From NCBI GenBank assembly GCA_039795895.1, contig JBDKKW010000003.1:1-61899 (forward strand): a stretch of DNA of 61,899 nt, given 5' to 3'. The position numbers and the translations under genes are program-made. This DNA is from Candidatus Parcubacteria bacterium (GTDB taxonomy: Bacteria; Patescibacteriota; Minisyncoccia; Phycocordibacterales; JBAYGS01). This document shows, piece by piece, positions 1-46,177 of this stretch; position 1 is the first letter of the stretch; the number at the start of each line of letters is the position of its first letter. The notes below the pieces were generated by a model. The model searched no databases and was not told where the DNA came from. It worked only from the letters and a program-made list of their open reading frames with translations.

Positions 1-2250
1 GCCTCATCAACCGCTCTCGGTACTACTGACCGATTCGTCATCAGTGGTGCCGGCAATGTCGGTATTGGTACCACTTCTCCTGGTCAGATGCTCTCTGTTG
101 CCGGAGATATCTTGGGTAACAACTTTATTGGCTCATACTTCACCGCGACGAGTACGACTGCAACAAGTTATTTTGCAGGAAAGATCGGTGTTGGTACTAC
201 CACTCCAAACTGGCTCTTCCAGCTCGCAAGTACCACCGCAAGTAATACAATGAAAGGCCAATTGGCTTTGACTGATATGGCTGCAGGTGCCGATCTTAAG
301 CATTGGGTATTTGCATCTGAAGGTGGTGCACTCTACTTTGCTACTTCGACCGATGCGTTTGCAACCTCAACCGTTCCAGCGTTGATGATAACCAAAAATG
401 GTAACGTCGGTATTGGTACCACTTCACCATACCTACCATTGTCGGTATACGGAGGTGCAGCAGCCACCTATTTTGTGGGCTCAGCAACGACTTCGACCAC
501 CACTCTCGCGGGTAGCTTCAACGTGGCAAACGGAGCAATGTTCTATGATAACTCTGGTGCATACACCAGTATCGACAACCTCCAGACTGGTGCACAGAGT
601 TTTGATACCAACGCAGGTATTGTGAGTTGGGTAGATGTTCCCGTTACTTCGGCTGCACCTGCAAGTACTATTGAAAGTTATAGTGCCCAAGTTGGAGGTA
701 CTTCGTTGCTCACTGTTTACGGTGAATCAGACGGTGCTGGAGGTGTGCAAAATCTTCGAGTGGGTATTGGTTCGACTAGTCCGACCCAGATGTTGACTGT
801 CACGGGAGGGGTCAACTTTACTGGTATCGCTGCTGGTGCAGGTACTGCCTATGTCTGTAGTACTGTGACCACTGGTGTACTTTCAACTTCTACTACAGCA
901 TGTAATCCGTCATCGATTCGATTCAAGGAAAATGTGGAAAATCTTTCGGCTGATCGCGGACTTGCTGGTGTGCTTCGTATGCGACCAGTGACTTATACCT
1001 ACAAGCCAGATATGGCGATTAGTGGTCAGCAAGTTGGATTTATCGCTGAAGAAATGGTGGGTATTGTGCCGGAAGCAGTGGGCTTTGATAGCCAAGGACT
1101 TCCAAGTAATATCGACTATGCAAAGTTGACTCCGATTCTTGCGAAAGCAATTCAGGAGCTTGCGACAACAACTGCATTTATCAGTAATGAGTGGGCAAGT
1201 ACTACTCCAGTATTTGCAGTGACTGCTGAGGGAAATATCGGTATCGGTACTTCGACTCCAGCATACAAGCTCCAGGTGATGGGTGATATTGCAGCGACTT
1301 CGTTTGTGAACATCTCGACTCGTGATGCCAAGAAAGATATTTCATATCTTTCTGCGAGTGATGACGCTACGGTCCTTGAGAAAATCAAGGCACTCAATGT
1401 GGCAACCTATCGATACAATATCGAGCCAAACAGCAACCCGCTTCGTATGGGCTTGATCGCTGAAGAAGCACCATCAGAAATCCTCGCGGTCGGTGGCAAG
1501 GGTGTCGATATCTACAAGCTCTCATCATTTATCCTCGCGGGTGTGAAAGCACAGCAAAGTAAGCTCGAATCTCTCGAGACTCGCATCGCGCGACTCGAAG
1601 CAAATCAGTCGACTGGTGGCACACAGACTCAGTCTGTCGGAGACTACTTGAGTCAGATGGGTGTCCAGCTCTCAGCGACCGTCGCACAATTTAAGACAAT
1701 GGTGGTAGATGCGCTCACCGTCGGTAGTAGCGACAAGCCATCAGGCATCACGCTCTACGATGAGGTCACCAAACAGCCATACTGCTTGAAGATTGCAAAT
1801 GGTGCGACCGTCACTGCTCCAGGAGTCTGTACTTCAGTATCGAGTGCTCCAAGTATCCCTGAGACTTCGACCACCACACCGTCACTTCCATCAGGTACCG
1901 CAACTTCAACCTCGAGTGATACAATCCCTCCAGTGATTAGTCTTAATGGCAACAATCCTGCGACCGTACAGCGAGGCGCGACTTACCTTGATCCGGGTGC
2001 GACTGTGACTGACAATGTCAATGATAATCTCGGGGTGACAACTGTTGGTGGCGAAATCGATACTACAATCCCAGGAGAATATACGGTACACTACAGTGCG
2101 ACTGACGCAGCAGGGAACACTGCGAGTACCACTCGTACCGTGATCGTTACTGATTCGTCTGCAACAAATACGATGCTCAATGTCTCGACGACCACCGATG
2201 TAAGTGGTACGACAAGCACCGCAACGACCTCTGATACCGTAACACCATAG
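1..2250 (+). CDS. Fibre-like surface protein (5' end off-window) with GIGT[TS]SP glycine repeats, two tandem peptidase-S74 intramolecular-chaperone domains, a coiled coil and a C-terminal Ig-like (DUF5011-type) domain
   Basis: Frame 1 is open from nt 1 (ASSTALGTTDRFVISGAGNVGIGTTSPGQ precedes the first Met at 88); stop at 2248-2250. S74-like blocks: SSIRFKENVENL..VGFIAEEM..IDYAKLTPILAKAIQEL (~907-1180) and STRDAKKDISYL..MGLIAEEAP..KLESLETRIARLE (~1315-1605). Ig-like block: PPVISLNGNNPATVQRGATYLDPGATVTD..YTVHYSATDAAGN (~1920-2150). Confidence 0.75.
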   Translation, partial: ASSTALGTTDRFVISGAGNVGIGTTSPGQMLSVAGDILGNNFIGSYFTATSTTATSYFAGKIGVGTTTPNWLFQLASTTASNTMKGQLALTDMAAGADLKHWVFASEGGALYFATSTDAFATSTVPALMITKNGNVGIGTTSPYLPLSVYGGAAATYFVGSATTSTTTLAGSFNVANGAMFYDNSGAYTSIDNLQTGAQSFDTNAGIVSWVDVPVTSAAPASTIESYSAQVGGTSLLTVYGESDGAGGVQNLRVGIGSTSPTQMLTVTGGVNFTGIAAGAGTAYVCSTVTTGVLSTSTTACNPSSIRFKENVENLSADRGLAGVLRMRPVTYTYKPDMAISGQQVGFIAEEMVGIVPEAVGFDSQGLPSNIDYAKLTPILAKAIQELATTTAFISNEWASTTPVFAVTAEGNIGIGTSTPAYKLQVMGDIAATSFVNISTRDAKKDISYLSASDDATVLEKIKALNVATYRYNIEPNSNPLRMGLIAEEAPSEILAVGGKGVDIYKLSSFILAGVKAQQSKLESLETRIARLEANQSTGGTQTQSVGDYLSQMGVQLSATVAQFKTMVVDALTVGSSDKPSGITLYDEVTKQPYCLKIANGATVTAPGVCTSVSSAPSIPETSTTTPSLPSGTATSTSSDTIPPVISLNGNNPATVQRGATYLDPGATVTDNVNDNLGVTTVGGEIDTTIPGEYTVHYSATDAAGNTASTTRTVIVTDSSATNTMLNVSTTTDVSGTTSTATTSDTVTP

Positions 2251-2253
2251 TGT

Positions 2254-4380
2254 ATGTCTCTACGGATATTCAAAATTAACGCACTTCTTGTATCACTAGT
2301 ATTCAGTGTGTACTTCGGTGTGTGTGTATCTCGAGTCAATGCAGCGACGAAAATAAATGCACCAGCTTCTGTACGTCTGACGAGTGGACTGGTTGATTAT
2401 TGGCCGTTTGATGCTCCGTATGTTAGTTTTGTCTCTAACACCGCCACCGATATTGCGAGTGGCGCTAAAAATGCCACGTTTGTGAGTATGGCTACGAGTA
2501 GTGCTCCTGTGGCGGGCAAGCTTGGGCAAGCCTTGTATTTTGCGGGAGTGAGTAGTCATTTGAATGTGAGTAATCTTGATAGTGTTGGCGGTACCCAGAC
2601 CGTCTCTTTTTGGTTGAAGCGGGGCCGTACATCGTCCGGAGGATTTGAGGGTGTTATTGGTTGTAACACGACTGGAGGATGGGGTATCGGTATTGATGGG
2701 GTGACCATCAACGGAAGATTATATAATGGAAAAATCGGTACCTCTGCACACTACACAACAGGAACTATTCTTGATACCAAGTGGCACCATGTGGTCCAGA
2801 CTCGCGACGGTGCGACTGTGCAATTCTATATCGATGGTGCATTTGATTCGAGTCAGGCTGATACTGATACCTACAGCTGTACGAGTGGTACAGCGACTTA
2901 TACCATCGGAGATATTAACAGTGGTGCGCCGTTGCTCGGGACGATTGATGATCTTCGTGTATACAACAGAATCTTGAGTACGACCGAAATCACTTCGTTG
3001 TACAAGCTCGGCCAAGCCACCATTCAAGCTTCAAAAAAGACTACTCGCACCGACGGACTGATTGGTATTTGGACGTTTGATGGCAAAGATATTACCAATG
3101 GAAGAATTCTCGATCGCAGTGGCAACGGGCGAGATTTGTATATGAACAATATTGCAACCTCATCTTTTTATGTTTCCGGTAAAAATGGACAAGCGGGGAG
3201 TTATAGTGGAAACAGTAGTCGCAAGGAATACGCCATGTCGTCGGCGACCACATGGGGAATTTCGACTGTCTATAGTATGTCGGCATGGATAAAAACTTCA
3301 GCAAGTAATGCTGCTTCGGTCGTTGCTTTGGGAAGGCAGAGTGTACTCGATGAACCAATGATTTATATGTCGCCCACCAACGCCGCCTTTTATATTTCTT
3401 GTGGTGCAGGATGTTATACCGGTATGGTGGGTAATGTGACAACCATCAACAATGGGAAGTGGCATCATATTGTGGTGACTTCTTCGGCACACGCTTGCGC
3501 AAGCTTGCGTATCTATGTTGATGGGGTTCTCGAAGGAAATACTTGTAGCACCGCTGGAGCAGCCACTGCTCCAAGTGATGGCTCTAATCGGTATTTATCA
3601 GTAGGTTTCCGTTCGTGGCCATATCCGACCGGAGCGTCAGAACTTTTTAATGGATTGATTGATAATGTCCGACTCTACAACAAAGCACTATCTGCTCAGG
3701 AGGTCACTGCACTATATAAGGCCGAGAGTGCGTCAAAGGTAAATGCCTCTCAAAATGCTCAGCTTGCTTCAGGTTTGGTGGGACTCTGGTCGCTCGATGG
3801 AGCAGATGCAATACGAGGTTCGTTTAAGGATCGTAGTGGTCAGAGCAGAGATGGATACATTGTCGGTACGATTGCCTCATCTACTTTTTATGTCCCAGGT
3901 AAGATTGGGCAATCGGTGAAATTTGCTGCGAATGACAGCTATATCAGTGTCCCCAATCTCGACACAAACACCCTGAGTGTTTTTGCGTGGATCAAGGTGA
4001 GTGGTGCCACCGACCAAGTGATTGTGGATGTGCTCGGTAGTGGTGGGTTTGGTTTTTATCTTGGAGGTGGAGCTGGAGGTACCTTGCGCCTAACAAAACG
4101 TGGTGGTTCTGAGGTGGCTTCTACGGGTACTGTTTCTGGGGGTGTGTGGCATCATGTTGGTGTGGTGTATGATGGCGCCAATGCTAAATTTTTTATCGAC
4201 GGTGTTCCGAGTGGTGCCCCGGCATACACACAAACGTTTTCAAGTGGATCAACTCGCTATGGTATCGGAGGTATTGAAGCTGCTGGGTTTACCATGAACG
4301 GGTGGCTCGATGATGTTCGATTGTACAACAGAACATTGTCTCAAGATGAGATCACACGCCTCTATAGTATTGGCAGATAA
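2254..4380 (+). CDS. Secreted protein with three LamG / concanavalin-A-like lectin modules
   Basis: 708-aa ORF with a signal-like N-terminus (INALLVSLVFSVYFGVCVSRVNA). Three ~230-aa modules each end in a LamG_3-type motif (IDDLRVYNRILSTTEITSLY, IDNVRLYNKALSAQEVTALY, LDDVRLYNRTLSQDEITRLY) and each carries a W-H-H-[VI] strand. Confidence 0.8.
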   Translation: MSLRIFKINALLVSLVFSVYFGVCVSRVNAATKINAPASVRLTSGLVDYWPFDAPYVSFVSNTATDIASGAKNATFVSMATSSAPVAGKLGQALYFAGVSSHLNVSNLDSVGGTQTVSFWLKRGRTSSGGFEGVIGCNTTGGWGIGIDGVTINGRLYNGKIGTSAHYTTGTILDTKWHHVVQTRDGATVQFYIDGAFDSSQADTDTYSCTSGTATYTIGDINSGAPLLGTIDDLRVYNRILSTTEITSLYKLGQATIQASKKTTRTDGLIGIWTFDGKDITNGRILDRSGNGRDLYMNNIATSSFYVSGKNGQAGSYSGNSSRKEYAMSSATTWGISTVYSMSAWIKTSASNAASVVALGRQSVLDEPMIYMSPTNAAFYISCGAGCYTGMVGNVTTINNGKWHHIVVTSSAHACASLRIYVDGVLEGNTCSTAGAATAPSDGSNRYLSVGFRSWPYPTGASELFNGLIDNVRLYNKALSAQEVTALYKAESASKVNASQNAQLASGLVGLWSLDGADAIRGSFKDRSGQSRDGYIVGTIASSTFYVPGKIGQSVKFAANDSYISVPNLDTNTLSVFAWIKVSGATDQVIVDVLGSGGFGFYLGGGAGGTLRLTKRGGSEVASTGTVSGGVWHHVGVVYDGANAKFFIDGVPSGAPAYTQTFSSGSTRYGIGGIEAAGFTMNGWLDDVRLYNRTLSQDEITRLYSIGR

Positions 4381-4447
4381 TACCTAAGTGCGTCTGGATT
4401 AAAGACGGGTTTAAAGAAGAAAATATTGCTATAATCAACTCACGTAT

Positions 4448-6520
4448 ATGGCAAAAAACCCCACCAACAATTTTATGTATTTACTGAGATTCTTTGTCGG
4501 TGTGCTTGTGTTGGTGCCTGTTTTTGCGCATGCTTCGGTCAAGACTAATGTGTCGACTCCGCCAGTGAGTAATCGGGGACTTGTAGGCTACTGGTCGTTT
4601 AACGGTACTGATGTGAATTCCACGACCGTATTTGATCGCAGTACGTACGCATACGATGGCACCCTTCACGGTATGGGGACAAAATACTCACTTTCTGGAA
4701 AAGTGGGTCAGGCGTTTTCTTTTGATGGTACCGGTGCGTATATATCACTCCCAAATCTTGATATGCAAGCGCCTTTGTCGTGGTCATTTTGGATTAAGCG
4801 GGGGAGGATTGGTCACGCGAACGATGATTTTTTTGGTGGTGACAGCGCGGGTTCGTGGGGTCTTGGCTTCAACGCAGACAATACACTCTTTCTTACAAAA
4901 GTGGGGGTTAATAGTGTAAGCTCGACGGGCACTATCACCGATATGAAGTGGCATCATGTGGCGGTGACTTATGATGGTACGAATGTACGATTTTATTTTG
5001 ACGGTGTTCTTGATTCTGCTCCAAGCTATACGAGTGGTACCTATACTAGTAGTGGGGGTGCGTACGCGATGGGGAGGGTAAATGTTTCGGCGTATTTTAG
5101 TGGCGCACTTGATGAGGTGCGGATGTATAGTCGGGTGTTGTCGGCATCAGAGGTGAGGACCTTGTACGGTAGTGGGTCGGTAAAGATTGCGAGTCCTTCA
5201 TCGAGTAATGCGGTGGTACCCAATGGTCTGATTGGTCTCTGGTCGTTTAATACCAATGACGTTGTGAATGGGACACTGATCGATCGAAGTGTTTCTGGAA
5301 ATACTGCGTATTTGTACAACACGGCAACATCGACGGTCTACAGTACTGGACGTATCGGTCAGGGGCTGACTTTTGATGGTGCCGATGATTATGCAAAGAC
5401 GCTCGCCACGACTTGGGGGGTGACCAATACTCTCTCGATGTCGGCGTGGATAAAAACAACGAGTAATACGTTGTCGATCGCATCGCTGGGCCACACCACA
5501 GTCACCGATGAAGCTTTGATGTATGTGTATGGTGGTACGGCGGCGCTGTATTTTTCTCAGGGGACTGGTGTGTACACAGGTGTCAATGGCACAAAGATAG
5601 TGAATGACGGCGTGTGGCACCATGTGGTGGTTGTGGCTACGGGACCGTCTGTTGCGTGCGCGAATATACGGATATATGTCGATGGTGTGCGTGATACTGA
5701 ACATTGTATTGCAGAAAGTGTCTCTAGTATCAGTGATGCTACGCCTCGTAATTTTTTCATCGGATGGCGTTCATGGGGTGGGGGCGGATTTGAATTGTAT
5801 AATGGGAGTATCGATGATGTTCGGTTATATAATCGCGTGCTTACTTTAGGAGAGATAGGACAACTATATCGTTCGAGCGGTGTTACCAATCTCAATGTGT
5901 CTCAGAATAAAAAGAGCATTGGGGGACTTGTGGGATTGTGGTCATTTGATGGGTCAGATATGGTGACAGGGACCACCGCCTACGATCGGAGTGGAAATGG
6001 GTATAATGGAGCACTGCATGGATTGGCGACTTCCAGTGTTGCGGTCGGCAAGGTGGGACAGGCGCTCCGATTCAATGGAGTCGACAATTATATTAGCGTC
6101 CCTAATTTTGATATGAGCACTTTGAGTGCTTTTGGGTGGGTCAATATTACTCCCGGGAGTACTCAGGCGATTATTGATAGTCTCGCTAATGGCGGATGGG
6201 GTTTGTATATTGCGTCAGACGACACGGTGCGTTTTACCAAGCGGGGTAGTGCCGAAGTTGTCTCAGTGGGTACGGTATCGCGTGGATGGCACTATATTGG
6301 TGTCACCTATGATGGTGCAAATGCACGATTGTATATTGATGGTGTGCTCGACAGTGCGCCAGCCTTTAGTCAAACATTTTCTAATGGCGCGATGGGGTAT
6401 GGTATCGGTGGCTTGAGTTCTGCTGGGTTTACAATCAACGGCCGTCTCGATGATGTGCGTTTGTACAATAGAGTGCTCTCTTCGACTGAAGTAAGGACGC
6501 TGTACAATACAGAAAAGTAG
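4448..6520 (+). CDS. Secreted triple-LamG protein, tandem paralog of 2254..4380
   Basis: 690-aa ORF with a signal-like N-terminus (FFVGVLVLVPVFAHA). Same three-module layout (LDEVRMYSRVLSASEVRTLY, IDDVRLYNRVLTLGEIGQLY, LDDVRLYNRVLSSTEVRTLY). Confidence 0.8.
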   Translation: MAKNPTNNFMYLLRFFVGVLVLVPVFAHASVKTNVSTPPVSNRGLVGYWSFNGTDVNSTTVFDRSTYAYDGTLHGMGTKYSLSGKVGQAFSFDGTGAYISLPNLDMQAPLSWSFWIKRGRIGHANDDFFGGDSAGSWGLGFNADNTLFLTKVGVNSVSSTGTITDMKWHHVAVTYDGTNVRFYFDGVLDSAPSYTSGTYTSSGGAYAMGRVNVSAYFSGALDEVRMYSRVLSASEVRTLYGSGSVKIASPSSSNAVVPNGLIGLWSFNTNDVVNGTLIDRSVSGNTAYLYNTATSTVYSTGRIGQGLTFDGADDYAKTLATTWGVTNTLSMSAWIKTTSNTLSIASLGHTTVTDEALMYVYGGTAALYFSQGTGVYTGVNGTKIVNDGVWHHVVVVATGPSVACANIRIYVDGVRDTEHCIAESVSSISDATPRNFFIGWRSWGGGGFELYNGSIDDVRLYNRVLTLGEIGQLYRSSGVTNLNVSQNKKSIGGLVGLWSFDGSDMVTGTTAYDRSGNGYNGALHGLATSSVAVGKVGQALRFNGVDNYISVPNFDMSTLSAFGWVNITPGSTQAIIDSLANGGWGLYIASDDTVRFTKRGSAEVVSVGTVSRGWHYIGVTYDGANARLYIDGVLDSAPAFSQTFSNGAMGYGIGGLSSAGFTINGRLDDVRLYNRVLSSTEVRTLYNTEK

Positions 6521-19305: not shown

Positions 19306-19392
19306 GGAAAGGTGCCGGAGCGGTCTAACGGGCAGTCCTGGAAAGACTGTGTATCAGAAATGGTACCGCGAGTTCGAATCTCGCCCTTTCCG
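19306..19392 (+). tRNA. tRNA-Ser (anticodon GGA)
   Basis: Acceptor GGAAAGG/CCTTTCC, anticodon arm CAGTC-CTGGAAA-GACTG, long variable arm, T-arm GCGAG-TTCGAAT-CTCGC, discriminator G. Confidence 0.9.
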
Positions 19393-19425
19393 CAAAATAA
19401 ATATTACCTAGGGTGATTTTATTTT

Positions 19426-34147: not shown

Positions 34148-34151
34148 GATT

Positions 34152-34505
34152 TCTGGGTAACGATAAGCCGAATTCTGTACCCAGCACTATTACAGTGCTG
34201 GGCGATAGTCATTTGTCTGGGCCATATGTTGCCACATAGCTCTGGCGACTCTCCGCATATTCTTGCGAATATTTGGCACGGTCTTGCACGTAGGTAAGGA
34301 TTTGGCCGTTGCAACCCCGATATTACTATCGGGACTCACCCCGTGAAGGGTGCCTCAATCTTTTCAGATTGAAGCGTCTCTGTTCGCACCTCTAGGATTG
34401 CTCCTGACGGGCGTTACCCGCTACCATCCTCCGCACTTTGTGTGCGGACGTGTTCGGACTTTCCTCCCGGATTCCCGAAGAAACCCGAGTAACTATCTAT
34501 TACCC
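34152..34505 (-). ncRNA. rnpB: RNase P RNA (bacterial type)
   Basis: The minus strand reads GGGAGGAAAGTCCGAAC (CR-I, 34455-34471 region) and ACAGAATTCGGCTTATCG (CR-V, ~34162-34179). P1 candidate is GGGTAAT / GTTACCC. The ends are approximate. Confidence 0.85.
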
Positions 34506-34511
34506 TCAATT

Positions 34512-37450: not shown

Positions 37451-39127
37451 ATGGTCAAGCGGATTCTGTCACTGCTGAACAAAGAGATAGGAGGCCTCCA
37501 CGAGGCAGCCTATCTCTTGGGCTTTTTTGCCCTATTGTCACAGGTGCTCGCGTTGGTTCGCGACCGCTTGCTCGCGTATACCTTTGGTGCAGGAGCAACG
37601 CTCGATGTCTACTATGCAGCATTTCGAATCCCAGACTTTATCTTTGTGTCGATTGGCTCGGTGGTCTCCGTGTCGGTACTGGTGCCATTTTTACTTGACC
37701 GTGCGCGACAGAGCGAAGATTCTGCGAGACTGTTTATTAGTCAGCTGTGCACGTTCTTTTTCGGATTGATCGTGATGGTAAATCTTGTTGTGTTTTTCTG
37801 TGTACCATTTCTGACGGCTTGGCTTTTTCCAGGTATTATCGGAGAAAGGCACGATACGCTGATTCTTTTAACACGAATTCTTCTGCTTTCACCGGTGCTC
37901 TTGGGGCTCTCCAATTGTCTGGGAAGTATCACTCAGGCATACAAACGATTTGTGGTGTACGCGTTGAGTCCATTGGTCTATAACTTGGGAATTATCTTCG
38001 GTATTCTAGTATTGTATCCGCAATTTGGGATGGTTGGTTTGGTGTATGGGGTTGTGTGTGGTGCGCTCCTGCATGTGCTCGTCCAGGTGCCCTCGGTGAG
38101 GGCTATTTCTCGAATGCCATACGTGGCGATACGGGGAAGTGCGAAGGTGTTTGCCCAAGTAATGCAGTTGTCACTTCCACGTACGCTCACACTTGGATTG
38201 TCTCAAATTGCGACTATCTTCTTGCTCTCACTCGCCTCAAAGATGGCTGATGGTTCGATTACGGTGTTCAATTTTGCTTTCAACCTTCAGTCGGTTCCAC
38301 TGTCGATTATTGGAGTTAGTTATTCGCTCGCCGCCTTTCCGGCGTTGTCAAAAATGCACACCGACGGTGATCGGAATATGTTTTTTAACCAACTCGCCTC
38401 TGCTGCTAGACATATTCTTTTTTGGTCGGTGCCGATTACGGTACTCTTTATTGTGTTGCGTGCGCAGATTGTGCGCGTGGTGCTCGGAGCAGGGGAGTTT
38501 AGTTGGGCTGATACTCGTCTCACCGCTGCTACACTCGCGCTATTTTCGATTTCGGTTGTCGCCCAGAGTCTCACACTGCTTTTTGTTCGGGGGTACTATG
38601 CCCGAGGTAACACGCGAAGGCCATTGTTGGTAAATGTATCGTCGACACTGCTTATTGGGGTACTTGGATTTTCTTTGACCAAGCTGTTTGTGGCAGTTCC
38701 GTCGTTCCATTATTTCCTCGAGGCGCTCTTTCGTGTGACCGATATTTCAGGAACAGAGATTTTGGTGTTGCCGTTGTCGTTTACGATTGGTATGGGTATC
38801 AATGCGTTGGTTCTGTGGTGGGGACTCAAGTCTGAAAGTCCGATTCCACTGGCGCCACTCCGTAAAACCTTTTTTGAAAGCTTTTCTGCGTCGATTATTA
38901 TGGGATTTGTCGCATATCTCTGTCTCAATTATTTCAGTACTGTCTTTTCAATGCACACTGTGCCCGGTATTTTCTTCCAGGGCTTTTTCTCGGGAATTAG
39001 TGGAATCGTGGTTGCGGTAGTGGTCTTGTATGCACTAAAAAGTCCTGAGCTTGCTGTGGTGTGGAAGACGCTTCATGCCAAGATTTGGAAGACTCCGGTG
39101 GTAGCGGAAGAGCTGGGGCAACTTTAG
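37451..39127 (+). CDS. murJ: Lipid II flippase MurJ/MviN
   Basis: 558 aa, about 14 TM segments. MurJ-like N-terminus (AAYLLGFFALLSQVLALVRDRLLAYTFGAG..DVYYAAFRIPDF). Confidence 0.85.
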   Translation: MVKRILSLLNKEIGGLHEAAYLLGFFALLSQVLALVRDRLLAYTFGAGATLDVYYAAFRIPDFIFVSIGSVVSVSVLVPFLLDRARQSEDSARLFISQLCTFFFGLIVMVNLVVFFCVPFLTAWLFPGIIGERHDTLILLTRILLLSPVLLGLSNCLGSITQAYKRFVVYALSPLVYNLGIIFGILVLYPQFGMVGLVYGVVCGALLHVLVQVPSVRAISRMPYVAIRGSAKVFAQVMQLSLPRTLTLGLSQIATIFLLSLASKMADGSITVFNFAFNLQSVPLSIIGVSYSLAAFPALSKMHTDGDRNMFFNQLASAARHILFWSVPITVLFIVLRAQIVRVVLGAGEFSWADTRLTAATLALFSISVVAQSLTLLFVRGYYARGNTRRPLLVNVSSTLLIGVLGFSLTKLFVAVPSFHYFLEALFRVTDISGTEILVLPLSFTIGMGINALVLWWGLKSESPIPLAPLRKTFFESFSASIIMGFVAYLCLNYFSTVFSMHTVPGIFFQGFFSGISGIVVAVVVLYALKSPELAVVWKTLHAKIWKTPVVAEELGQL

Positions 39128-39148
39128 GGATTGAAAGTATGAAGTCGG

Positions 39149-39190
39149 AAAAGTCGGGCAAAATGGTTGCCATTTTGCCCGACTTTTATT
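39149..39190 (+). terminator. Rho-independent terminator
   Basis: AAAAGTCGGGCAAAATGG-TTG-CCATTTTGCCCGACTTTT (18 bp). Confidence 0.85.
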
Positions 39191-39214
39191 GACTTATTCT
39201 ATTTGAGGTGTACT

Positions 39215-39313
39215 ATGGTAAATATGAAAAGAATAACGAGCGCTATAAACCTTCTCGGTTTGCTACTCCTGCCTAATCACGGTGGAGATTTTGCTCGTGC
39301 CAATTTAAACTAA
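39215..39313 (+). CDS. Candidate Leu-rich leader peptide (MVNMKRITSAINLLGLLLLPNHGGDFARANLN)
   Basis: GAGGTG (39205-39210) lies 4 nt before ATG 39215 (alternative ATG 39224). Leu codons at 39251-39256 and four consecutive at 39260-39271. Stop TAA at 39311-39313. Too short to appear in the ORF track. Confidence 0.55.
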   Translation: MVNMKRITSAINLLGLLLLPNHGGDFARANLN

Positions 39314-39340
39314 CTTACGTTAGAAACTCAAATTGATACA

Positions 39341-39378
39341 AGCCAGCTCTTCACCAAATGAAGAGCTGGCTTTCGTTT
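39341..39378 (+). terminator. Attenuator/terminator hairpin between the leader peptide and leuA
   Basis: AGCCAGCTCTTCA-CCAAA-TGAAGAGCTGGCT (13 bp) followed by TTCGTTT. Confidence 0.7.
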
Positions 39379-39405
39379 ACCGTGTGGTAAAAAGGGAAGT
39401 GTTCT

Positions 39406-41094
39406 TTGAGAAAATACACAAAATTGCTACGTCGTATGTTACAAGATACTGTTGGTAAATATCGTCCGTTTCCACCTATTGTTCTGCCGGATCGTCGTTG
39501 GCCAAATCGAGTGATTATTAGTCCTCCATTGTGGGCAAGTGTAGATCTTCGCGATGGCAATCAAGCGCTTCCCGTGCCGATGAATATTAGTCAAAAACTC
39601 GAGATGTTTAGAGCCTTAGTAACATATGGTTTCAAGCAGATTGAGATTGGTTTCCCTTCTTCATCAAACACAGAATTTCGATTCACTCGTCTTTTGATTG
39701 AAGAGAACCATATTCCTGATGATGTAACTATTCAGGTGCTCGTCCAAGCACGTGAAGACTTGATTGAGCGAACGTGTAAGTCGCTCGTGGGTGCGAAGCG
39801 TGTGATTGTGCACTTGTACAATTCTACGTCACCCGCTCAACGTCGTGTGGTCTTTGGTAAATCGAAAGAGGAAATCAAGGCCTTGGCTGTGCATGGTGCA
39901 CAACTGATCTCCGATCACCTCCGTTTACTCAATGGTACCGATGTCACTCTCCAGTATTCGCCAGAAAGTTTCTCGGCGACTGAAGTGGAATATTCCAAAG
40001 AGGTCGCTGAAGCGGTCATGGATGTATGGCAACCGACCCGAGAACGGAAGATGATTTTAAATCTCCCGTGCACGGTCGAAGTGGCTATGCCAAACGTGTA
40101 TGCCGATCAGATTGAGTGGATGTGTCGAAATATTAAAAATCGAGACTCGCTCATCATTAGTCTGCATACGCATAATGATCGTGGTACCGGTGTCGCCGCT
40201 ACTGAATTGGGTTTGCTCGCCGGCGCGGATCGCGTCGAGGGCACACTCTTTGGTAATGGCGAACGTACAGGAAATCTTGATATTGTCACTGTGGCATTAA
40301 ATCTATATGCACAAGGTATTGATCCAGGACTCGATTTTAGCGACCTGGAATCCGTGTGTACGATGTATAAACGATGCACTGGAATGACTATTCCTCCGCG
40401 TCATCCCTACGCCGGTGAGTTGGTGTTTACTGCGTTTAGTGGTTCTCATCAGGATGCCATTAAAAAGGGTCTGGATGAATGGAAGGTTGGTCAGCGTACT
40501 CACTGGGACGTTCCGTATCTCACGGTCGACCCCGGTGACCTTGGTCGTTTGTATGATGAAGTTATTCGTATAAATGGCCAATCAGGCAAAGGAGGAGTCG
40601 CATATTTGCTCGAAAATGAATTCGGCCTTCATATACCGAAAGACATGCAACGTGAGTTTGGCCCTATTGCCAACGACTTGGTTGATTCACTTGGTCGTGA
40701 GGTGAAAGGGGAGGAGCTCAAAGCAATGTTTTGGCATGAATATGTCGAACGTACGACGCCTTGGAAGCTCTCTGTGTTTGAGGCAGTGGGAGGGGATGTT
40801 TGTTCTTGTAGTGCTCAGATACTGCATAACAATAGTTCTCGTACTATTGTGGGTCACGGTAATGGTCCGGTTGCATCTTTTGTGGATGCGATAATCACAA
40901 ACACAGAAGTACCGCAGTTTAAAGTGCTGTTTTACAAAGAACACTCTTTAGGTGTGGGAGAAAGTGCTTCAGCAATTGCCTACGTTCAGCTCGAGATAAA
41001 TGGTGGTCAGTATTGGGGTGCTGGCGTTGATTCCAATATTGAGCTTGCCTCAGTCAAAGCCGTTCTGAGTGCGCTCAATCGTGCTTCTCAGTAG
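39406..41094 (+). CDS. leuA: 2-isopropylmalate synthase (long, LeuA type 2)
   Basis: KYRPFPPIVLPDRRWP, VDLRDGNQA, LHTHNDRGTGVA, and a C-terminal LeuA dimerisation/regulatory domain. Start is TTG 39406 or a downstream ATG. Confidence 0.9.
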   Translation: MRKYTKLLRRMLQDTVGKYRPFPPIVLPDRRWPNRVIISPPLWASVDLRDGNQALPVPMNISQKLEMFRALVTYGFKQIEIGFPSSSNTEFRFTRLLIEENHIPDDVTIQVLVQAREDLIERTCKSLVGAKRVIVHLYNSTSPAQRRVVFGKSKEEIKALAVHGAQLISDHLRLLNGTDVTLQYSPESFSATEVEYSKEVAEAVMDVWQPTRERKMILNLPCTVEVAMPNVYADQIEWMCRNIKNRDSLIISLHTHNDRGTGVAATELGLLAGADRVEGTLFGNGERTGNLDIVTVALNLYAQGIDPGLDFSDLESVCTMYKRCTGMTIPPRHPYAGELVFTAFSGSHQDAIKKGLDEWKVGQRTHWDVPYLTVDPGDLGRLYDEVIRINGQSGKGGVAYLLENEFGLHIPKDMQREFGPIANDLVDSLGREVKGEELKAMFWHEYVERTTPWKLSVFEAVGGDVCSCSAQILHNNSSRTIVGHGNGPVASFVDAIITNTEVPQFKVLFYKEHSLGVGESASAIAYVQLEINGGQYWGAGVDSNIELASVKAVLSALNRASQ

Positions 41095-41109
41095 GTTATA
41101 AAACACACA

Positions 41110-41140
41110 AACCGTTCGTGTATTTCGCGAACGGTTTTTT
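41110..41140 (+). terminator. Rho-independent terminator
   Basis: AACCGTTCG / CGAACGGTT stem followed by TTTTT. Confidence 0.75.
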
Positions 41141-41247
41141 CATTGTTTGAGCATTTCACATTGAAGTGTCTTCTAGTAAAAAATCAAAAATAGAGCTCTA
41201 TAGAGCCACTCTATCTTTTTTGCGGATTTCTGCTAGTATTGCCCTAT

Positions 41248-44214: not shown

Positions 44215-44371
44215 CCGAAGTATTGAGCAGAGCGAAATCACTTTGGGGAGTGAGGAAGCAAACTGCTTTGCTTCCGGCGGGAAGCGGAAGGCTTTTCTAT
44301 ATTTCGTCCGCGAAATGAGAAAAGCACCTGACTATGTAGTAGTCGATTCCCGCCACTCGCACCGAAGTATT
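44197..44371 (+). repeat. 28-nt perfect direct repeat of the tRNA-Gly 3' end flanking a 119-nt structured insert
   Basis: CGATTCCCGCCACTCGCACCGAAGTATT occurs at 44197-44224 and again at 44344-44371. Confidence 0.9.
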
Positions 44372-44400
44372 AAGTTATTTATATTAGTATATCTTTATTT

Positions 44401-45537
44401 ATGAAAATCCTTATTGTTGGAGCCGGGATCGGAGGTTTAACCCTTGCAGCGTTTCTTAAAGAATCTTCTATCGAGTACGATATTGTCGAAAAAGCAAATA
44501 ATTGGAACACGCAGGGATTCTCGATTGGATTGTGGAATAATGGTAGACATATTTTAGCAAAACTCGGTATTCTTGATCGATTGGAAAAAGAGGGCACGCA
44601 CATCAAGCGCTACCAAGTCCGTAACGGCAAGGGGGATCTCATTCGTGAGTATGATTTTTTTAAATTGTATGCCAAATACGGCCTGAGCTATACCCAGATC
44701 AACCGAGCTTTCCTGCACAGTTGGTTACTTGAACTTGTCGGTAAGGAAAATATTCAGCTTGGAGTGCAGGTTAATTCCCTGAAAGATGTTGGGCACGGGG
44801 TTGAGGTTGTTTTAAGTAATGGTCAGACGCATACTTATGATCTTGTGGTCGGCGCAGATGGTATCCACTCGAAGATCCGCGGTATGATTTTTGGTAGTGA
44901 ACTTGAGAAATTCGACAACTGGCGAGTTTGGTATGCTTGGGTTGATAATCAATTTAAAGATGAGGCTACTGTCACTGAATATGTCGAGCCGGGCGAATTC
45001 ATTGGTATTTTTGATTCTTGTGGTAAAACACTTGCCGTTCTCATTGCCCCTGTCGAACACACTGTTTGGGATGATGTAAAAGGACGACTTGGACGTTTGA
45101 GTGAGACATTTAAGCATGAGGTTAGACTGGATGGTTTTTTGAAGGGTTTGAAAGATGAGGATGTTATGCCCACAGATCTTAGTCGTGTTACACTCAAAAA
45201 ATTTGTGAAGGGTAGAGTAGTGCTCGCTGGAGATGCTGCACATGGTTTTGAGCCGAATGCTGGTCTCGGCGCCTCAATGGCTATGGAGGATGGTTACGTG
45301 CTTGCTGCTGAACTCATGAAAGTCTCAGGTACCTATACGATCAAAAAGGCTATTGATCGCTATCAGGATCTTAGAAGGAAGCGGGTGAAGGTGGCTCGTT
45401 CATCGACCAGTAGAATGCGGTCGTGGTCTTTCATTGGTCCAAGATGGCTCAGGAAGACTGTGGACTTTTTCCTTCCTTTTGTTCCACAGCCTCTTTTTAC
45501 TAGCCAGTATCTGAAGTTGATGAAGGAGGAGATTTAG
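44401..45537 (+). CDS. FAD-dependent monooxygenase (UbiH/aromatic-ring hydroxylase family)
   Basis: MKILIVGAGIGGL dinucleotide-binding motif and GDAAHGFEPNAGLGASMAMEDG. Confidence 0.8.
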   Translation: MKILIVGAGIGGLTLAAFLKESSIEYDIVEKANNWNTQGFSIGLWNNGRHILAKLGILDRLEKEGTHIKRYQVRNGKGDLIREYDFFKLYAKYGLSYTQINRAFLHSWLLELVGKENIQLGVQVNSLKDVGHGVEVVLSNGQTHTYDLVVGADGIHSKIRGMIFGSELEKFDNWRVWYAWVDNQFKDEATVTEYVEPGEFIGIFDSCGKTLAVLIAPVEHTVWDDVKGRLGRLSETFKHEVRLDGFLKGLKDEDVMPTDLSRVTLKKFVKGRVVLAGDAAHGFEPNAGLGASMAMEDGYVLAAELMKVSGTYTIKKAIDRYQDLRRKRVKVARSSTSRMRSWSFIGPRWLRKTVDFFLPFVPQPLFTSQYLKLMKEEI

Positions 45538-45619
45538 TTGAACAACAAGCATTGCGTTGTTTCAAATCTAAAAAGTTTGATACAATAAACCAACTTTATT
45601 AGTTATTATTTACATGTAT

Positions 45620-45856
45620 ATGAAGACTGTTGCGATTTATTCAACCCCGACCTGTCATTACTGCAATATGGCAAAGGATTTTTTTAAGAAGAATAATATC
45701 GCCTACACTGAATACAATGTGGCGACTGATTTGGCGAAGCGAAAAGAAATGGTAGAGAAGAGTGGTCAGATGGGGGTGCCGGTGATTGAGATTGATGGCA
45801 AGCTTTCTGTGGGGTTTGATGAAGCGGAGATTAAGGGTGCTCTCGGAGTTAAATAG
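45620..45856 (+). CDS. Glutaredoxin-like protein (NrdH/YruB type)
   Basis: VAIYSTPTCHYCNMAKDFF, GVPVIEIDG. Confidence 0.8.
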   Translation: MKTVAIYSTPTCHYCNMAKDFFKKNNIAYTEYNVATDLAKRKEMVEKSGQMGVPVIEIDGKLSVGFDEAEIKGALGVK

Positions 45857-45981: not shown

Positions 45982-46053
45982 GCCCTCGTAGTTCAACAGA
46001 TAGAACCGGCCCGTCCTAAGGGTCTAATGTCAGTGCAACTCTGGCCGAGGGCA
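45982..46053 (+). tRNA. Atypical tRNA-Arg (anticodon CCT) or tRNA-like gene
   Basis: Perfect acceptor GCCCTCG/CGAGGGC, D-arm GTTC-AACAGATA-GAAC (no GG), anticodon arm GGCCC-GTCCTAA-GGGTC, T-arm GTCAG-TGCAACT-CTGGC (no T-Psi-C consensus). Confidence 0.5.
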
Positions 46054-46177
46054 CAAATTTAGAAAGTAAATTTGGATGGACAGAATCGGAATTATATTCT
46101 ATGCTGTTAGCGGAATTCGATTTTGAACCATGGTGGTTCAAGTAAGTACATTTTTAAACTTAAACTGGAGGTATCCA

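Follow-up and report, generated by a model that had tools for sequence, protein, structure and literature searches.

A putative leucine leader-peptide attenuator upstream of leuA in a Parcubacterium and related leaders with isoleucine codons

The attenuators of the enterobacterial leu (leuL, RF00512), trp and his operons share their logic with a leader that we analysed upstream of leuA (2-isopropylmalate synthase) in a Parcubacterium. The DNA studied is a stretch of 61,899 nucleotides (nt) from contig JBDKKW010000003.1 of Candidatus Parcubacteria bacterium, called the window throughout, and the leader lies in the gap between murJ and leuA. It contains an open reading frame (ORF) with codons for the pathway product, a terminator between this ORF and leuA, an antiterminator that shares an arm with the terminator, and an anti-antiterminator that overlaps the regulatory codons. 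We are confident that these elements form a ribosome-mediated (leader-peptide) transcription attenuator that tunes leuA to the supply of charged tRNA-Leu. The original prediction, made from the sequence of the window, had proposed a leucine attenuator at this site, and every computational test that it named supports the proposal. The mechanism itself is already known from textbooks. What is new is the host group, the candidate phyla radiation (CPR), a sequence family that is absent from Rfam, and the fact that a single RNA chassis serves repeatedly with its sensor codons exchanged, also before a gene that was apparently acquired horizontally. The value of the finding lies in annotation and evolution, not in concept.

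The likeness to the enterobacterial leu leader that had been pointed out holds for the logic; the nearest relatives, on the other hand, are leaderless Leu leaders of long-type leuA genes. The enterobacterial leader is led by a Shine-Dalgarno (SD) box and regulates leuABCD, whereas the leader in the window is probably leaderless, has a much longer antiterminator (23 pairs) with the stop codon in its apex, and would regulate a single long-type leuA. A search of Rfam with the whole window at gathering score, and with 39100-39480 at E-values up to 10, returned no leader, T-box or riboswitch, only chance microRNA-like hairpins. The literature searched contained no account of attenuation by leader peptides in CPR, Patescibacteria or Verrucomicrobia/Verrucomicrobiota, which is not proof of novelty.

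Closer counterparts have been described in Actinobacteria, where leaders of Streptomyces lividans, leuL of Corynebacterium and the 'LEU element' (Seliverstov et al. 2005) combine, as in the window, a TIGR00970 leuA with a short ORF containing a run of Leu codons. LeuL1 of S. lividans (MRFGLLLLSCRGEGL) was mapped as leaderless by transcription start site (TSS) sequencing (PMC8079986), and a Leu leader, MNRANLLLLRRGGSQA, was identified in C. diphtheriae (PMC5784534). For the LEU element it was proposed that the Leu run pairs with the SD box of leuA or forms a pseudoknot, and actinobacterial leuA leaders may act on translation (PMC1262725). A pairing of this kind was found by eye in the window, where CUUCUC (39251-56) could pair with GGGAAG (39394-99), but it is impossible for the copies with Ile codons described below. 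Actinobacterial leuA leaders usually have no intrinsic terminator, unlike the window with its clear terminator/antiterminator pair, and the two share no detectable sequence similarity. Among the loci that we fetched, leaders with Leu runs also precede long-type leuA in Beta- and Alphaproteobacteria and in Protofrankia.

The leader ORF and its start codon

The gap between murJ and leuA is 308 nt long and contains all four elements of the original prediction, namely a promoter, a GAGGTG box, a Leu-rich ORF and a hairpin (Table 1). The TTGACT/TACTAT promoter is at the place given for it and is also one of the three promoter-like sites returned by a promoter scan of the region; the scan found none between 39380 and 39436. 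In all eight of the other CPR-type leaders, read from their sequences, TTGAC lies 34-38 nt 5' of the start codon. The terminator of murJ is predicted to shield the leader from upstream transcription, and promoter, leader, leuA and the terminator of leuA itself make up a self-contained unit.

As had been claimed, the four consecutive Leu codons of the ORF are four different codons. A seventh Leu is encoded near the C-terminus. The Leu-rich run is not due to chance: shuffling the 308-nt intergenic region 200,000 times produced an ORF with at least six Leu in seven codons in 111 cases, and the six frames of the window hold two such runs in total, the other one within a long ORF.

Two ATG codons, at 39215 and 39224, are in frame with this run. 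The GAGGTG sequence that had been read as the ribosome-binding site (RBS) of a 32-codon ORF is present, but within the promoter spacer, and ATG 39215 overlaps the -10 box. Because box and start codon are inside the promoter, the promoter and this RBS/start pair are unusable on one transcript; a role of GAGGTG as an RBS is thus unlikely, and translation more probably begins at the second ATG, which gives 29 codons. This ATG lies 7 nt past the -10 box and 35 nt past TTGAC, a spacing also seen in the relatives, and in 35/35 leaders (9 CPR-type and 26 Verrucomicrobiota-type) the start codon is 6-9 nt past the -10 box. A transcript from the predicted promoter would carry no SD box. Because the start codon sits so close to the -10 box in the window and its relatives, the transcript is likely to be leaderless and translated from ATG 39224. 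The coincidence of ORF start and transcription start was mapped in S. lividans (PMC8079986), whereas here it is inferred from promoter geometry.

We also considered an attenuator that starts at ATG 39215 and uses GAGGTG, on a transcript from upstream of 39200 that results from murJ read-through or an unrecognised promoter. The box is located 4 nt before this in-frame ATG, and SD-like boxes are also found in the promoter spacers of two related contigs, L101 and L175. Yet the box falls between the -35 and -10 elements of the only promoter-like site there, and little read-through is expected from murJ with a terminator of -29.5 kcal/mol ending at 39191. Moreover, in L101 the ATG that comes after the SD-like box is, as read from the sequence, in a different frame from the leader ORF; the box is missing from L161 and L173, and alignment of the homologous peptides begins at the second ATG (MK...). 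This start is therefore unlikely, and a leaderless start at ATG 39224 is preferred. The SD-like sequences, GAGGTG or GAGGTT, are at 39205-39210 in the window, 2230-2236 in L101 and 5162-5167 in L175; their recurrence could be a coincidence or a signal on another transcript.

Alternative RNA structures and the proposed attenuation

The leader can form three structures that exclude one another. The G+C-rich hairpin that had been predicted begins 27 nt past the leader stop codon, and RNAfold gives it 14 pairs and -23.8 kcal/mol (z = -7.75 against shuffles). Its 5' arm, AAGCCAGCUCUUCACC, is invariant in the window, in both copies of L161 and in the leuA leader of L101. A helix enclosing this terminator (CUCAAA..GAUAC with GUGUU..UUUGAG) was dropped when it was seen by eye not to be retained in L161.

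The original prediction had suggested folding the region for a competing structure, and an antiterminator supported by covariation was found. Its helix has 23 pairs (-22.0 kcal/mol, z = -4.2), the apical hairpin (39310-23) contains the stop codon, and it is the minimum-energy fold once the 3' arm of the terminator is left out. Antiterminator and terminator are mutually exclusive because both use 39341-53. An equivalent helix occurs in 8/8 leaders folded, at -17 to -28 kcal/mol. On the alignment of these eight leaders (RNAalifold), the 23 pairs have 90.8% of cells paired and 10 pairs show compensatory changes. None of 500 column shuffles scored as high, and shifting the register by 1-3 columns lowered pairing to 36-46%.

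The third structure, a protector (anti-antiterminator), has an energy of -18.8 kcal/mol (z = -2.4). Its CUCC.GCC strand consists of the Leu15, Leu16 and Pro17 codons, and its outer helix encloses the codon run. The leuA leader of L161 retains both protector helices with altered sequence (CUUCUACC/GGUGGAG and UGAGCAC/GUGCUCA), and the last part of the codon run sequesters GGUGG in the eight folded leaders, strongly in some of them.

From these structures we propose the following. Transcription would begin about 7 nt past the -10 box (near 39223), at or beside ATG 39224, and the 29-codon ORF would be translated from a leaderless mRNA. When leucine is scarce, the ribosome would stall in CUU CUC GGU UUG CUA CUC CUG (39251-71). 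With its A site on Leu13-Leu16 it would cover about 39245-39281, including the inner protector strand CUCCUGCC (39266-73), and would already have translated through the outer protector 5' strand (39236-42). This would free GGUGGAGA and the following ~25 nt (39281-39306) to pair with 39330-55, a stretch that contains most of the terminator 5' arm. With the antiterminator formed there would be no terminator, and RNA polymerase would continue into leuA. When leucine is ample, the ribosome would traverse 39281-39313 to the stop codon in the antiterminator apex and sit on 39296-39323; with the antiterminator 5' strand occupied, the 14-bp terminator would form and transcription would stop near 39378. 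Without translation, the protector (39236-98) would sequester GGUGGAG and the terminator would again form.

Several observations count against this proposal. The U-tract UUUCGUUU is interrupted, and a simple terminator scan missed the attenuator hairpin, reporting in its place the small 1:2 hairpin with UUUU after it. The terminator of the window is slightly more stable than the antiterminator at equilibrium, and equilibrium folds of the full leader always keep the terminator, whether or not a ribosome footprint is masked; since the antiterminator is seen only without the terminator 3' arm, the switch must be kinetic. Protector pairing is weak in L101 and in the ilvA leader of L161 (about -8 to -10 kcal/mol). 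Another ATG in the same frame, with its GAGGTG box, is found 9 nt before ATG 39224, and leaderless initiation in CPR bacteria is deduced from promoter geometry. No other branched-chain amino-acid gene is present within the window. In addition, mutants of the Streptomyces coelicolor leuA leader were inconsistent with classical attenuation, as far as the citation of that work in PMC1262725 conveys, and a Leu leader is therefore no guarantee of the textbook mechanism. Regulation by leucine, the TSS and the 3' ends at this locus are computational predictions.

Downstream of the terminator is a further conserved block, a hairpin and a purine box (Table 1). About 40 nt here are nearly identical between the window and L161, although identity between the two LeuA proteins is just 76%. 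Equivalents are found at 2450-2475 of L161 and in regions of L173 and L175, with a hairpin loop of the YNGNGUG type. The box, GGRAAGUG, is present in 6/8 leaders, is one base off the SD-like GGAGGUG, and the block lies 21-56 nt before the start of the structural gene.

Leucine and isoleucine versions of the leader

Leaders homologous to that of the window are present in four other contigs (L161/L162, L173, L101 and L175/L176). A conservation check had been proposed for the mini-ORF, and results from this showed that the ORF and its Leu run are kept before leuA in three of these contigs, with core differences that are mostly synonymous; between the window and L161, leader codons 9-26 comprise 10 identical, 6 synonymous and 2 non-synonymous codons. 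L161/L162, which is named as Patescibacteria, has the order secDF, leuA, ilvA, a leuA leader starting MKLSTLNLLGLLLLPNNGGDLARA and a terminator as in the window. The gene order of L173 is as in L161, with the leuA leader MKSSTINLLGLLLALKNGGGLARAKIN, and L101 has secDF followed by leuA with the leader MQSSNKLNLLDLALTTNIGGAFAHVRF; both peptides are complete to the stop codon. The secDF-leuA arrangement is thus common to three contigs, each of which is CPR by naming, context or both.

The shared chassis consists of the promoter geometry, GGUGGAG, and CUCUUCAYC inside the terminator. Eight more copies occur in other Parcubacteria contigs, of which three precede leuA (Leu codons), three precede ilvA or ridA-ilvA (Ile codons) and two, also Ile-rich, precede genes that we were unable to place in the pathway. 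We assigned leaders to this CPR-type ('W-type') family by a TTGAC promoter with an ATG 7-9 nt past the -10 box, a Leu or Ile run, GGUGGAG and, after 40-70 nt, CUCUUCAYC inside a terminator; the leader in the window has all of these. An nhmmer profile built from eight leaders gave 107 bits (E = 4.5e-31) for the leader in the window, found no second copy there, and recovered a ninth copy in L101.

In the ilvA-type copies the Ile run occupies the position of the Leu run. The ilvA and ridA-ilvA leaders of L161, L173 and L175 share promoter geometry, GGUGGAG, CUCUUCAYC and the terminator with the leader in the window but have Ile codons and a threonine dehydratase gene downstream. An Ile leader also precedes ridA-ilvA in L174, and the IlvA of L175 is named as that of Parcubacteria group bacterium GW2011_GWA2_49_9. 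In the sequences compared, the sensor codons follow the pathway product wherever the downstream gene is known. The run switches from Leu to Ile according to the gene that follows, with the RNA pairing segments unaltered; this is expected of a codon sensor and not of a peptide that has its own function.

The same pattern bears on the idea that the mini-ORF is an independent gene for a small hydrophobic protein with its own terminator, leuA being transcribed separately. LLGLLLL does resemble part of a membrane helix, and short transcripts ended by a terminator resemble small genes. However, there is no promoter-like site at 39380-39436 from which leuA could be transcribed, the stop codon lies inside the antiterminator, and the swap of Leu for Ile in the hydrophobic run coincides exactly with that of leuA for ilvA, the pairing segments being unchanged; we regard this idea as extremely improbable. 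Nor can much weight be given to the idea of a leader RNA that, like a T-box or riboswitch, binds a ligand, a tRNA or a protein and has an ORF merely by accident; we regard it as extremely improbable, too. In its favour, GGUGGAG and CUCUUCACC are conserved in sequence beyond structure; this conservation is, however, accounted for by their mutual pairing, the synonymous pattern and the codon swap require translation, and no Rfam family matched at E-values up to 10.

The structures could also be real without functioning in classical attenuation, either as a relic carried with the gene or by acting mainly on translation or mRNA stability via the post-terminator block, a matter under debate for the LEU elements of actinobacterial leuA. 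The S. coelicolor mutants, to the extent that PMC1262725 reports them, behaved non-classically, LEU elements of Actinobacteria often have no terminator (PMC1262725, PMC8079986), the U-tract in the window is imperfect, and the hairpin and GGRAAGUG box downstream of the terminator are conserved. In a relic, by contrast, one would not expect a 23-pair antiterminator to survive 10 compensatory changes, the codon run to drift only synonymously, or paralogous copies to carry matching runs of Leu and Ile. We judge this explanation to be very unlikely, and transcription attenuation remains by far the favoured interpretation.

Other copies show further variation. The second leader of L101, with an Ile run, precedes a 186-aa ORF that has only the LeuA_dimer (allosteric) domain; a stand-alone regulatory domain behind an isoleucine attenuator is odd. 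L175 (1-10650) carries a near-complete leu/ilv cluster (leuC, leuD, leuA, leuB, ilvE, ridA, ilvA and ilvB) with at least three putative leader-peptide attenuators, namely those of ridA-ilvA (Ile), ilvB (Val) and a 142-aa gene (Ile/Ala).

Table 1. Features of the leuA locus in the window, leaders in other contigs (peptides end at a stop codon) and a further RNA gene
Feature	Position	Strand	Description
Promoter	39189-39216	+	-35 TTGACT 39189-94, 16-nt spacer, -10 TACTAT 39211-16; promoter scan match
Leader ORF, long version	39215-39313	+	32 codons from ATG 39215, MVNMKRITSAINLLGLLLLPNHGGDFARANLN; stop TAA 39311-13
Leader ORF, preferred version	39224-39313	+	29 codons from second, in-frame ATG; MKRITSAINLLGLLLLPNHGGDFARANLN, then stop
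Sensor codons	39251-39271	+	CTT CTC GGT TTG CTA CTC CTG (LLGLLLL); six Leu codons, five different
Protector (anti-antiterminator, '1:2')	39236-39298	+	CUCC.GCC 39266-73 with GGUGGAG 39281-87; outer ACGAGCG 39236-42 with UGCUCGU 39292-98
Antiterminator ('2:3')	39281-39355	+	GGUGGAGA (39281-88) with UCUUCACC (39348-55); UU/AG; GCU/AGC; GUG/UAC; CAAUUU/AAAUUG
Attenuator terminator ('3:4')	39340-39379	+	14 pairs, 39340-53 with 39359-72, loop CCAAA, then U-rich UUUCGUUU
Post-terminator conserved block	39376-39401	+	hairpin UUUACC-GUGU-GGUAAA 39376-91; purine box GGGAAGUG 39394-401
leuA (2-isopropylmalate synthase), putative regulated gene	39436-41094	+	long 'yeast/actinobacterial' type; TIGR00970 701 bits; Pfam HMGL-like, IPMS_D2, LeuA_dimer
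leuA terminator	41111-41145	+	10-bp hairpin, -15.4 kcal/mol, then TTTTTT
murJ	37451-39127	+	PF03023 match
murJ intrinsic terminator	39149-39191	+	18-22-bp hairpin then UUUUAUU; -29.5 kcal/mol, z = -9.9 against shuffles
L161 ilvA leader			Ile run; MEFRINSIIIGIIITKSNGGDLTRASF
L173 ilvA leader			Ile run; MTSSARIISIISIIITSSTGGDMTCARF
L175 ridA-ilvA leader			Ile run; MRKSAQVISIIWQSIITETIGGDFACVQL
L175 leader before 142-aa gene			Ile/Ala; gene without pathway assignment; MQISARAIAIIAIIIPSLTGGELTRARF
L101 second leader	L101 4242-5018		Ile run; MMKQHARIIGISIIITGKTGEDLACVHSFY; precedes 186-aa ORF with LeuA_dimer domain only
L175 ilvB leader			Val-rich, different hairpin; MPFRATNLVVVKTNSRVGFCDVVA
Class-A RNase P RNA	34148-34508	-	115 bits against a cut-off of 100

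Host genome, origin of leuA and neighbouring features

CPR bacteria (Patescibacteria) are usually described as lacking amino-acid biosynthesis, and their gene regulation is little understood. The genome in the window had been called CPR-like, and the sequences that we compared bear this out. LepA, encoded next to the leuA unit, is 97% identical to a protein of a 'Patescibacteria group bacterium' and 73-76% identical to proteins of Minisyncoccia, Paceibacterota and Taylorbacteria. The gene content of the window is also typical of Parcubacteria, with glycolysis and pentose-phosphate genes, a sortase, LemA/TPM proteins and large Laminin_G_3 surface proteins.

By contrast, the LeuA of the window is 69-79% identical to proteins of Verrucomicrobiota and 59% identical to the LeuA of another Parcubacterium. 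An exact-sequence look-up of this LeuA found no other contig, and no LeuA was closer than 73% in scans of genomes and metagenomes or 76% in a protein database. A groundwater contig (L167), which by LepA (97%) is the nearest relative, shares synteny on either side of the murJ-lepA site and has no leuA there. Between murJ and lepA it carries an SLT-like gene, L31 and prfA (2708-5934), where the window has the leuA unit (39128-41179), and synteny resumes at window position 41180. Going by these comparisons, leuA is Verrucomicrobiota-like and occupies the murJ-lepA site in the window's lineage only, which suggests that it was acquired horizontally and then relocated.

The start of leuA is most likely ATG 39436 because the database copy of this protein (P0001) has 552 aa and its homologues have about 551 aa. 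TTG 39406, which follows AAGGGAAG, was ruled out as a start; the equivalent TTG of L161 is out of frame with leuA, and the homologues begin at the ATG.

A leader also precedes leuA in Verrucomicrobiota, where the proteins closest to the LeuA of the window (69-79% identity) are found. Its peptide, (M)NRNLNLNLLLNALL..AAVGF followed by a stop, was seen at 26 distinct loci among L001-L020, L081-L109 and L163-L165. All 26 have TTGAC, 17 nt, a TAnnnT box, then after 6-7 nt a GTG or ATG start, and a terminator further on. The terminator 5' arm, CCCACUGCC, is complementary to the ORF end, GGCAGUYGGG. It resembles the leader of the window in its leaderless geometry, an N-L-N-L-L motif, an antiterminator 5' strand at the 3' end of the ORF and a terminator ~25 nt past the stop codon. 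The two differ in the pairing, GGCAGUYGGG/CCCACUGCC against GGUGGAGA/UCUUCACC in the window, and in starting with GTG against ATG. Covariation of the Verrucomicrobiota antiterminator is weak (90% paired, with 42/500 shuffles matching the score) because the sequences barely vary. This leader peptide is apparently translated from GUG on a leaderless transcript, as part of an attenuator with four regions; the leader belongs to no Rfam family and no description of it was found in the literature searched.

Taken with the chassis copies in other Parcubacteria, these comparisons incline us, by a modest degree, towards a broader interpretation. Some Parcubacteria would run their branched-chain regulon on one leaderless chassis (GGUGGAG, and CUCUUCACC inside the terminator) with Leu and Ile codons swapped. 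The CPR-type chassis, and not the leader of the donor, would control the leuA derived from Verrucomicrobiota, which would have moved in the window as a self-contained unit. One RNA chassis with swapped sensor codons would thus illustrate the way in which attenuators spread and acquire new targets.

The attenuator is a concrete cis-regulatory element to seek in CPR genomes, with Leu and Ile versions in several Parcubacteria. It would mark lineages that probably make branched-chain amino acids, one contig bearing a near-complete leu/ilv cluster, and it implies that in these organisms translation is coupled to transcription and can start on leaderless mRNA. If the broader interpretation is true, at least some Parcubacteria would synthesise their own branched-chain amino acids, and these ultra-small bacteria would depend on tight coupling and leaderless initiation for metabolic sensing.

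Other features of the window were also recorded. A second lineage-specific insertion near the leuA unit (44370-45626) contains a gene for a FAD-dependent monooxygenase (44401-45537, PF01494) that is absent from L167. Five tRNAs were found with ARAGORN (Ser-GGA, Gly-CCC, Arg-CCT, Phe-GAA and Val-GAC), with no tRNA-Leu among them, while Rfam at gathering score gave three tRNAs and did not list tRNA-Ser and tRNA-Arg (19306-19393 and 45982-46054). At 88-6520 there are three consecutive ORFs of ~700 aa that resemble surface proteins, the first with Peptidase_S74 and Ig-like domains and the other two with Laminin_G_3 repeats. Outside the CPR, loci of the Oxalobacteraceae type (L035, L040, L047, L048, L112, L119, L121, L131, L133 and others) have two different Leu-rich leader ORFs in tandem before leuA, for example MISHLHLSAFLLSPASALSLAARLLARV and M...LLLKLPIGCRA, each followed by a stop codon; these sequences suggest tandem attenuators at such loci.

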